Virus record (IMG/VR): IMGVR_UViG_3300044614_001780
Origin: a virus
Strand: one strand, 5' to 3'
DNA length: 64,000 bases
Part shown: piece after piece, positions 59,524 to 61,103 of the stretch
Layout: each line of letters begins with the position of its first letter
Position numbering within the stretch: position 1 is the stretch's first letter
Notes under the pieces: generated by a model
The model's input: only the letters and a program-made list of their open reading frames with translations
The model's database searches: none
What the model was told of the DNA's origin: nothing
Made by a program: the position numbers and the translations under genes

Positions 59524-60213
59524 TTATTCTATAATAATTGAGGGGGCATCTGAGCATTCTGGGCAATTTTCACGAGTCCACCCAAGTGCTTCGGATACTG
59601 CAGGAAACTGACATGTAAAAATACACTTAACAGCATTTGCAATATCCATGTGTTCTTTTTGGGTGCCATGCCCAGAACGCAAATCAATATAATGGATCCA
59701 TGACCTTACCGAACCCGTCATATAGAGTCTTGTAGGAGTTGCTAGGGGCAATACAAACCTTGCACACTCCTTTGCAATTCCAGCATCAAGCATTTGTTGA
59801 TACAGATCCATTGAATGTTTAAAATGGTCCTGCATCAAAATTTGAAACTTTTGAACAATAAATGGATCAACATCATCAATACTGTTTTGACGATTTTTGT
59901 CGTCTTGACGACGAAGTTCTGGCACAGGAATAGAATTCCCAAGCAAAGAACTATCAGCATATCTTTGTGAAAATTCTTGATATGTAAATGAACGGTGGCG
60001 CAAAATTTGAGCTGCTATACCTCTTGTGGTATTAATCTCAACAGTCATTGAAGCTTGTTCAAAGATACTCCAATGCTGATGTTGAATACAGTATTTAAGG
60101 AGTCCAGAAAACTTTTCATTTTCTTGGTTTGCTGGATTTGAAACACGAGCACAGTATGCCATGTGCTTCTCTGCATCTGGTGTTACTGAAATAAGTTTAA
60201 CAAGTTGTGTCAT
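59524..60213 (-). CDS. thyX: Flavin-dependent thymidylate synthase
   Basis: HWSIFEQ...[17 protein letters not shown]...ARFVLP; likely start MTQLVKL. Confidence 0.96.
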
Positions 60214-60214
60214 A

Positions 60215-60397
60215 TTAGTCTGGGTATCCATCATCATCTTCAAAAATTTCGTCGTAATCATGTAAACTTCTTGATTGTTTTTCAATTAAGTTTACGTTTT
60301 CTGTATAAGAATTTACATCAGAATAAACTTCTACCTTTAATGAGTCAACCAAAAGTTCTAAGTTTCTAATAATTAATTTTAATTTATCTTTGTCCAT
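60215..60397 (-). CDS. Hypothetical cyanophage protein
   Basis: [27 protein letters not shown]. Confidence 0.7.
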
Positions 60398-60417: not shown

Positions 60418-60453
60418 ATTTTACATAAAAAAGGGGGGAAAGTCAATCCCCCC
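60418..60453 (-). terminator. Intrinsic terminator overlapping a sigma70-like promoter
   Basis: GGGGGGA-TTGACT-TTCCCCCC-TTTTTT; TTGACT-17-TAAAAT. Confidence 0.75.
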
Positions 60454-60459
60454 AGAGCA

Positions 60460-60561
60460 TCAAACAACTTGTGGTTGCTTTGCCATATTCAGTTGTGCAT
60501 TGTGAAGGAGTTGTTCCTTCTTTGCTTTTTTCTTAAGATAACGAACGAAGTAAGTATTCAT
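60460..60561 (-). CDS. Small basic peptide (33 aa) coupled to the DUF4278 gene
   Basis: MNTYFVRYLKKKAKKEQLLHNAQLNMAKQPQVV; AAGGAGG RBS, ATGA overlap. Confidence 0.7.
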   Translation of the reverse strand: MNTYFVRYLKKKAKKEQLLHNAQLNMAKQPQVV

Positions 60562-60695
60562 TTGTGCCCCTCCTTTACAAATTTAACACCACGATAGGTT
60601 TCGTTGTATTGTTGAGGTTGTTGCATCATCTGTTGTTGATATTCTAAACGCTTTTGCGTATCATATTCAACACCACGGTATACGACTTTAGACAT
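60558..60695 (-). CDS. DUF4278-family peptide (45 aa, IF17 N-terminus-like, Gln-rich)
   Basis: MSKVVYRGVEYDTQKRLEYQQQMMQQPQQYNETYRGVKFVKEGHK; two YRGV motifs; AAGGAG RBS. Confidence 0.85.
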   Translation of the reverse strand: MSKVVYRGVEYDTQKRLEYQQQMMQQPQQYNETYRGVKFVKEGHK

Positions 60696-60726
60696 TAGGG
60701 TTCTCCTTAGTTTTTAAGTTAAAGAG

Positions 60727-60768
60727 CGTTCCTTCAGTCGGCTTTTGCGTCCTCTAAGAGGATGAACG
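60727..60768 (-). ncRNA. Glutamine riboswitch aptamer 2 (glnA-type)
   Basis: CGTTCA-TCCTC-TTA-GAGGA-CGCAAAAG-CCGA-CT-GAAGGAACG: P1 CGTTC/GAACG, P2 and short P3. Confidence 0.8.
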
Positions 60769-60771
60769 TTC

Positions 60772-61025
60772 CGTTCCGAGTCGGCTTACTTCCGTCCTAT
60801 TGAATTGTTTAGCACTTAAGTTTCACAACATCCTTTCGGAGTTCTAATAGCAATCGGTCTTCTTTTCTCTGGTCTACTACATCGTCGTTTTTAACGATGT
60901 CCATTAGTTCCCACGCTGCGTCACAACTTATTGTCACTTGATTAGATATAGCAAATTGTGTCGTAGAAATAAAAAGAAGTGGAACCCATGCTAAAAGCAA
61001 AAGTGCTTTAGTCATAGGATGAACG
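60772..61025 (-). ncRNA. Glutamine riboswitch aptamer 1 (glnA-type), P2 loop interrupted by an ORF
   Basis: 5' half CGTTCATCCTAT (61025-61014); 3' half ATAGGA-CGGAAGTAAG-CCGA-CT-CGGAACG (60800-60772). Confidence 0.7.
60809..61015 (-). CDS. Small two-Cys protein with hydrophobic N-terminus, embedded in the riboswitch
   Basis: 68 aa; ungapped similarity to 16954..17127. Confidence 0.7.
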   Translation of the reverse strand: MTKALLLLAWVPLLFISTTQFAISNQVTISCDAAWELMDIVKNDDVVDQRKEDRLLLELRKDVVKLKC

Positions 61026-61072
61026 TTAGGGGATTATTTTACCCCTAGTTACCATATATATCCAAACACTTT

Positions 61073-61088
61073 TGTAAAATATGATACA
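61073..61088. promoter_or_regulatory. NtcA-consensus box
   Basis: TGTA-AAATATGA-TACA with TTT/AAA flanks, upstream of the riboswitch. Confidence 0.55.
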
Positions 61089-61103
61089 AAATTTAATTTT
61101 GTA

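Follow-up and report, generated by a model that had tools for sequence, protein, structure and literature searches.

A predicted double glutamine sensor with a gene inside one of its hairpins in the leader of a small cyanomyovirus operon

Riboswitch aptamers are usually treated as compact, non-coding leaders. Conserved RNA folds arranged around a complete open reading frame (ORF), which sits in a tolerant hairpin loop, are familiar from group I and group II introns, but these are ribozymes whose ORFs encode mobility or maturase proteins, whereas at the locus described here a predicted metabolite sensor forms the fold, its closing helix includes the start codon, and a small, cysteine-stapled protein is encoded by the ORF. 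In the coat/replicase coupling of the RNA phage MS2, translation of one gene disrupts long-range pairing and so controls the start site of another, with no ligand involved; the long-range helices considered here belong instead to a predicted glutamine-binding core. The SAM-II, SAM-III/SMK box and preQ1-II riboswitches hold a ribosome-binding site or start codon within the aptamer and bury it upon ligand binding, but the gene that they regulate lies downstream of a compact aptamer and not, as here, inside it. To our knowledge, the coupling of metabolite sensing to ribosome traffic through a translated gene inside the ligand-binding fold is undescribed for any riboswitch class.

The closest described relative of the locus is the type 1 glutamine riboswitch in the gifB (IF17) leader of Synechocystis, where glutamine turns translation on and the C that follows P1 pairs to the ribosome-binding site (PMC6212724). 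Our locus shares with that leader the motif CGUUCA, the stretches ACGGAAGUA and GAAGGAACGC, a three-helix junction, a long-range G-C pair next to P1, a position upstream of a DUF4278/IF17-like gene, and a C after P1 in a stretch able to pair with the ribosome-binding site. It differs from the type 1 riboswitch in that a translated gene of 68 codons makes up the P2 loop and has its start codon in the P2 stem, in that the P3 loop is, in our reading, a permuted second core, and in a predicted span of approximately 300 nt against the usual 55 or so; furthermore, the gene-bearing unit is undetected by the Rfam model. Double and triple glnA aptamers in tandem have been reported (Weinberg 2010, PMC2864571; Ames and Breaker 2011, as cited in PMC10265488), and in these, too, two consecutive cores precede a single gene; such tandems are frequent among marine sequences and in cyanophages. 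In the glnA alignment of 2010 (PMC2864571), unit 1 of such a pair is aligned alone, and the gene and the 3' half of unit 2 fall into the unaligned flank, as in P-SSM2 (NC_006883). Within the full-text literature searched, a coverage that lies outside Ames and Breaker 2011 and Ren 2015, we found that work on tandem glnA elements mentions neither nested genes nor a linchpin between units nor a P3 that they share, and we came upon no account of a glutamine aptamer that encloses a gene. An earlier note on this DNA, written from its letters, had known of no description of the layout, and this holds as far as that literature reaches.

The window analysed here is a 64 kb stretch of viral DNA, and the features described below lie on its minus strand. 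Read along that strand, the core of a glutamine (glnA, RF01739) aptamer is present in two halves, AACGUUCAUCCUAUG (61027-61013) and AUAGGACGGAAGUAAGCCGACUCGGAACG (60800-60772), and a complete 68-codon ORF (61015-60809) lies between them. The 5' half, AACGUUCA-UCCUAUG, comprises CGUUC (61025-61021), a single A and UCCUAU (61019-61014), the last two bases of which are the A and U of the AUG start codon (61015-61013). The stop codon UAA (60811-60809) is followed, after an 8-nt spacer, by the 3' half: AUAGGA (60800-60795), the junction CGGAAGUA (60794-60787), AGCCGACU (60786-60779), a C and GGAACG (60777-60772). After a further GAA there follows a second, compact unit (60768-60726) that reads CGUUCA-UCCUC-UUA-GAGGA-CGCAAA-AGCCGACU-GAAG-GAACG-C, and the exact 11-mer AACGUUCAUCC occurs twice in the window, both times on the minus strand, at 61027-61017 and 60770-60760. 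The coordinates and motifs given by the earlier note proved correct on rereading this strand, as did its placement of the start codon in the 5' strand of P2 and of the stop codon 8 nt ahead of the 3' strand. The Rfam model, applied to the native sequence, does not recover the split unit that the note had described: the match in this region is to the downstream unit only (60770-60723), which scores 39.2 bits with RF01739, above the gathering score of 35, and even a permissive scan (E<=10) of the 451 nt from 60650 to 61100 returned no match to the gene-bearing unit. An intact unit 1 from phage DSL-LC02, whose core outside P2 is identical to that of the split unit, scores 35.6 bits with the same model; it is because of the inserted gene that the gene-bearing unit misses the gathering threshold.

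The two units form the leader of a transcription unit of approximately 600 nt. A consensus scan places a sigma-70-like promoter (TTGGAT, 18 nt, TAAAAT) at 61036-61065, where relatives have TTGACT, 18 nt and TATAAT. A hairpin, AGGGG...CCCCU, holds the -10 box in its loop, and its stem covaries between the window (61030-61065) and relatives (L087-L166) as AGGGG/CCCCT, AGAGG/CCTCT and GGGAG/CTCCT; the promoters of S-PM2 and P-SSM7 have their -10 box in a hairpin as well. Transcription is predicted to start near 61029, approximately 4 nt before CGUUC, so that the nested gene would have about 14 nt of leader, in which there is no Shine-Dalgarno sequence. Downstream of the aptamer units, 60697-60726 is a putative expression platform, in which CUCUUUA (60726-60720) pairs with UAAGGAG (60709-60703), the Shine-Dalgarno region of the next gene, in a minimum-free-energy fold; this hairpin fits the model of the Synechocystis gifB leader (PMC6212724). 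The gene that follows (60558-60695) encodes a 45-aa IF17-like protein with a weak match to Pfam DUF4278 (PF14105, 19.1 bits, cutoff 25.3) and a match to phrog_5049 (E 1e-10), and its P-SSM4 counterpart reaches 24.7 bits with DUF4278 at the same cutoff of 25.3. Its stop codon overlaps (AUGA) the start of a 33-aa ORF (60460-60561) that has no family match in Pfam or PHROGs, and the annotation of S-SRM01 has a small ORF at this position. An intrinsic terminator, GGGGGG...CCCCCC with a T run (60427-60453), ends the unit. A 253-aa ORF (59524-60285, minus strand) with an RHR...S...S.R motif, which is typical of ThyX thymidylate synthase, is found two small ORFs downstream of the operon; this neighbourhood is shared by S-SRM01. 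Elsewhere in the window, a cluster of three tRNAs occupies 983-1263 on the minus strand (Rfam, 54.7-56.1 bits).

The main evidence that this layout is beyond chance is its recurrence among cyanophages. A search with a neutral query, the junction between both units, yielded 82 viral contigs; among the distinct units, the first hairpin, the second or both are occupied by an ORF of 51-68 codons. In 23 distinct split units the AUG comes 4-8 nt after CGUUCA, and the frames of split units are always open from the AUG in P2 through a stop codon in or adjoining the 3' half. That stop lies inside the 3' P2 strand (as the UAG or UGA of xUAGGA or xUGAGA), in the conserved core GACUGAAGG, or a few bases before P2, as it does in the window. 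The converse test selected loci by similarity of the ORF protein alone. In this set, the best 80 of 243 viral contigs together with the window, CGUUCAUCCUAUG stands at the start codon of every member (81/81), the P1 strand CGUUC is invariant, and the 3' half is also present in 74; the remaining seven do not fit the 3'-half pattern, some of them ending at a contig edge and one having its stop codon inside UAGGA. A sister subfamily selected by protein in the same way is embedded likewise in 77 of 80 loci, as are all four of the further members taken from a profile search, and no free-standing member of the family was found among the loci examined. Which hairpin is occupied differs between phages. 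Prochlorococcus phage P-SSM4 has genes in both, and an Rfam scan of its region gives no glutamine element; in P-SSM7, S-SRM01, DSL-LC02 and DSL-LC03 it is the second hairpin that contains a gene, and in S-PM2 neither does. In P-SSM4 a manA RNA (RF01745, 184 bits; L004 519-704) lies directly upstream of the gene-bearing glutamine unit, so that two leader RNAs stand back to back. In many loci the second-hairpin genes read through the aptamer core (e.g. L004 1199-1217), and their proteins end in W-D-A-K-A-D or W-D-A-N-D, encoded by GGGACGCAAA...GACUGA, with the UGA of the conserved CUGAAGG as stop codon.

The earlier note had proposed that P2 closes over the whole 68-codon ORF, and both parts of this proposal, a coding gene and a stem that is maintained around it, were borne out. 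Across the 23 distinct split units, stem positions 4-7 pair at 3.09 of 4 on average, compared with 2.26 when partners are shuffled, and none of 10000 shuffles reaches the observed value. Within one orthologous sister subfamily (85-100% protein identity) the stems UCUCAUG/CAUGAGA, UCUUAUG/CAUAAGA and UCCUAUG/CAUAGGA occur, with rare G.U or mismatched intermediates; given these three stem haplotypes, whether UGA, UAA or UAG serves as stop codon varies in step with untranslated bases ahead of the AUG. In an alignment of 59 sequences, 98% of the cells are paired and 26 are changed on both sides, where shuffling gives 9.4 +/- 2.1 (0/500 reach the observed number) and slid partners give 0-1; matching insertions on both P2 strands, that is, correlated indels, are present in L236 and L241. 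The compensatory change between homologues for which the earlier note had proposed to look is thus seen in sister subfamilies, from which the covariation comes, and P2 in the window's own subfamily is invariant while the adjoining spacer varies. On this comparative evidence, the P2 pairing across the gene is under selection. A recent neutral insertion is rejected, since the two halves are invariant beside a variable spacer and changes in P2 are compensatory. The additional GA/UC pairs over a bulge with which the earlier note had extended the stem are not conserved, the spacer between stop codon and AUAGGA differing among relatives. In a thermodynamic fold of a 351-nt RNA the 5' P2 strand prefers a local hairpin, CCUAUG/CAUGGG, and the long-range P2 has a pair probability of approximately 0.03, a calculation that excludes ligand and tertiary energy.

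The remaining hallmarks of the class bear upon how the two units relate to each other. P1 (CGUUC/GAACG) has its 5' strand at 61025-61021 and two candidate 3' strands, 60776-60772 and 60731-60727, all of them invariant in relatives. P2, the hairpin expected after CGUUCA and before CGGAAG, is supplied by UCCUAU and AUAGGA, which pair across 213 nt and covary in related units. The E-loop, for which the class has ACGGAAGUA and GAAG around P3, is complete only if strands of both units are combined: unit 1 has AGUA and is without GAAG and without a P3 hairpin of its own, and unit 2 has GAAG and carries CGCAAA in place of CGGAAGUA, without GUA. The strand after CGGAAGUA (60786-60779) pairs with the strand that follows CGCAAA and precedes GAAGGAACG in unit 2 (60743-60736), and this helix, a P3 shared between the units, is flanked by AGUA (60790-60787), which fits the Rfam consensus ACGGAAGUA, and by GAAG (60735-60732), which with GAACG (60731-60727) fits the consensus GAAGGAACGC. 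Its two strands occur as 15 distinct pairs with compensatory changes and always of equal length (5, 6 or 8 nt), among them AGUCG/CGACU, AGUCA/UGACU, AGCCGACA/UGCCGACU, AGCCGACG/CGCCGACU and AGACAACG/CGUUGCCU. The solved aptamer has a critical long-range pair, G23-C60 (Ren 2015, as described in PMC6212724), and, by our reading of the consensus, G60792 and C60726 would occupy the same two positions. The third base of the unit 1 junction, G or C, is a Watson-Crick match to the base after the last GGAACG in all of the 143 distinct units, and both states, G-C and C-G, occur among them, although with only two states this covariation may rest on a single evolutionary switch. Judged from its core sequence, junction, linchpin and gene context, the element is a predicted type 1 glutamine riboswitch.

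Because the shared P3 covaries and the G60792/C60726 match is kept in 143/143 units, the gene-bearing core most likely spans 61025-60727, closing P1 with 60731-60727 and enclosing a permuted second core. This outer core would consist of P1 (61025-61021/60731-60727), P2 (61019-61014/60800-60795) over the gene, the junction CGGAAGUA, and P3 (60786-60779/60743-60736) between AGUA and GAAG. The second core would lie, circularly permuted, in the 'loop' of P3. There GGAACG, GAA and CGUUC (60777-60764) would form an inner P1 with a 3-nt loop, followed by the P2 hairpin UCCUC-UUA-GAGGA (60762-60750), which lies within the Rfam match and in other phages contains a paralogous gene, and by CGCAAA (60749-60744). 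Its proposed linchpin joins C60747 to G60771: a G follows the first GGAACG in 142 of 143 distinct units, and the C faces it in 141 of 143. S-SRM01 (L173) has an A after the first GGAACG, which gives a C.A mismatch at the inner linchpin while the outer G-C is kept, and its inner core may be dispensable or work differently.

A simpler arrangement would set the units side by side, with one aptamer (61025-60772) carrying the gene in its P2 and an independent second aptamer (60768-60727), each binding glutamine, and with the complementary strands 60786-60779 and 60743-60736 reduced to a kissing contact. GGAACG and CGUUC in 60777-60764 would then be the 3' P1 strand of the first aptamer and the 5' P1 strand of the second. 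All four P1 strands are identical and cannot tell the two arrangements apart, each type of unit is aligned by Rfam as a single aptamer (39.2 bits for unit 2 and 35.6 for unit 1 of DSL-LC02), and unit 1 is likewise handled as a single aptamer in the alignment published by Weinberg 2010. We nevertheless consider independent aptamers unlikely. The AGUA/GAA E-loop beside a covarying helix is rebuilt only by cross-combination of the units, and in the group to which the window belongs, 42 units with the G/C state, independent aptamers would place G.G and C.C at the linchpin positions, where nesting gives G-C and C-G. The spacer between units is held at 3 nt (GAN) in 161 of 165 units, and the side-by-side fold lies 6.9 kcal/mol above the minimum free energy compared with 4.6 for the nested one, a difference of 2.3 kcal/mol in favour of nesting. 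The tandem-aptamer picture of the earlier note therefore stands with regard to the gene inside P2, and is not supported with regard to two independent aptamers, the units being most likely interlocked.

It could also be argued that the conserved halves are boundaries at which small-gene cassettes recombine, or that pairing of the 5' and 3' ends stabilises the mRNA, with glutamine sensed by the compact downstream part alone. Nested genes of one orthologous type ('HHDD...GWHMSCERF') occupy the first hairpin in some contigs and the second in others (L023 and L027 against L005, L028 and L056; the first in L005, the second in L023 and L027), as would be produced by cassette exchange between repeated aptamer cores, an exchange that this distribution suggests. 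Promoter stem-loops flank shuffled small genes in T4-type phages, and the promoter with its -10 box in a hairpin resembles those cassettes. Yet the aptamer core retains all of its consensus nucleotides, beyond the stretches useful to recombination, P2 evolves by compensatory change, and without the 5' half that precedes the gene there is no complete canonical core. Sensing and recombination could in any case operate together, and an account by recombination or end pairing in place of a gene-enclosing sensor seems to us improbable.

The nested gene itself is, on the comparison of 37 distinct sequences of the window's subfamily, under purifying selection, since the pooled dN/dS is 0.17; third codon positions are 3x as variable as first and second positions. 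That the ORF is untranslated and its 213 nt merely a long structured extension of P2 is a view we reject on this ratio and regard as very improbable, for although a Shine-Dalgarno sequence is lacking and hairpin-forming parts (61015-60985 and ~60900-60879) are unusually conserved at synonymous sites, third-position variation is threefold higher, the frames stay open in every case between the AUG in P2 and a stop codon within or beside the 3' half, and the two cysteines are kept throughout a strongly diverged family. All nested proteins align as this one family, with a hydrophobic N-terminus and two invariant cysteines approximately 37 residues apart (Cys31 and Cys68 in the window), and a profile search extends it to 572 protein clusters at 90% identity, over which the DNA diverges to <20% protein identity with both cysteines invariant. 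An AlphaFold2 model of the 68-aa protein, of low confidence (pLDDT 65), places helices at 31-43 and 49-65 as a two-helix hairpin between the cysteines. The protein has no significant match in Pfam (best E 0.16, below the cutoff), and searches of PHROGs and the ESM Atlas were also blank; two subfamilies of the family are PHROGs lacking an assigned function. Two stretches inside the gene (60985-61018 and ~60879-60900) form minimum-free-energy hairpins and are nearly invariant at all codon positions, which suggests constraints at the RNA level within the coding sequence. The former, CCUAUG...CAUGGG, can conceal the start codon locally, and the latter has an 8-bp stem, ACAUCGUU/AACGAUGU.

Taken together, we read the locus as the leader of a small cyanomyovirus operon that holds a predicted double glutamine sensor of the glnA kind (RF01739) with a translated gene in one hairpin, and we give this reading a probability of roughly 0.6. 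As for how such a leader may operate, the entire leader of the nested gene would consist of the 5' strands of P1 and P2. Since the sensor would fold only after approximately 300 nt of RNA have been made, the first ribosomes would load unhindered. A ribosome starting at the AUG (61015) would cover both 5' strands, and a terminating ribosome would reach the 3' strand of P2; with such footprints, the nested gene would not be translated while the sensor is folded, nor would the sensor fold during translation, and we infer from a start codon and gene held within P2 that the two processes compete. At high glutamine, helices of the bound outer core would tie up the start codon along with the 5' end, blocking re-initiation and turning the nested gene off, and the G60792-C60726 linchpin would withdraw C60726 from the CUCUUUA/UAAGGAG hairpin, so that the ribosome-binding site of the IF17-like gene is freed and that gene is turned on. 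At low glutamine both states would be reversed. An IF17-like gene that is on at high glutamine would agree, by analogy, with the behaviour of gifB (PMC6212724). The ~300-nt fold would thereby take two of its strands from the nested gene's 5' end and start codon, with the anti-Shine-Dalgarno of the next gene as linchpin partner. The full proposal, a glutamine fold that assembles only around a translated gene and in competition with it, switches two genes in opposite directions, takes translation status as a second input and is the common cyanomyovirus form of this riboswitch (with P-SSM2, P-SSM4, P-SSM7 and S-SRM01 among the cultured examples), is tentative, and we hold its chances to be slightly short of even.

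A survey of phage riboswitches found two glutamine aptamers in cyanophages (PMC5473149). The split layout, which is carried by hundreds of viral contigs and also by isolates that have long been studied, would explain the near-absence of riboswitches in phage scans; if the ~300-nt gene-enclosing sensor is indeed the common cyanomyovirus form, the published conclusion that riboswitches are rarely used by phages (PMC5473149) would no longer hold. Phage-host pairs are available in culture for direct tests of its action. A whole translated gene inside a ligand-binding fold, to which it contributes its own start codon, would couple metabolite sensing to ribosome traffic, and the finding that a family of 572 protein clusters is embedded in a glutamine sensor in every case examined suggests that these proteins help the phage to deal with the nitrogen status of its host.
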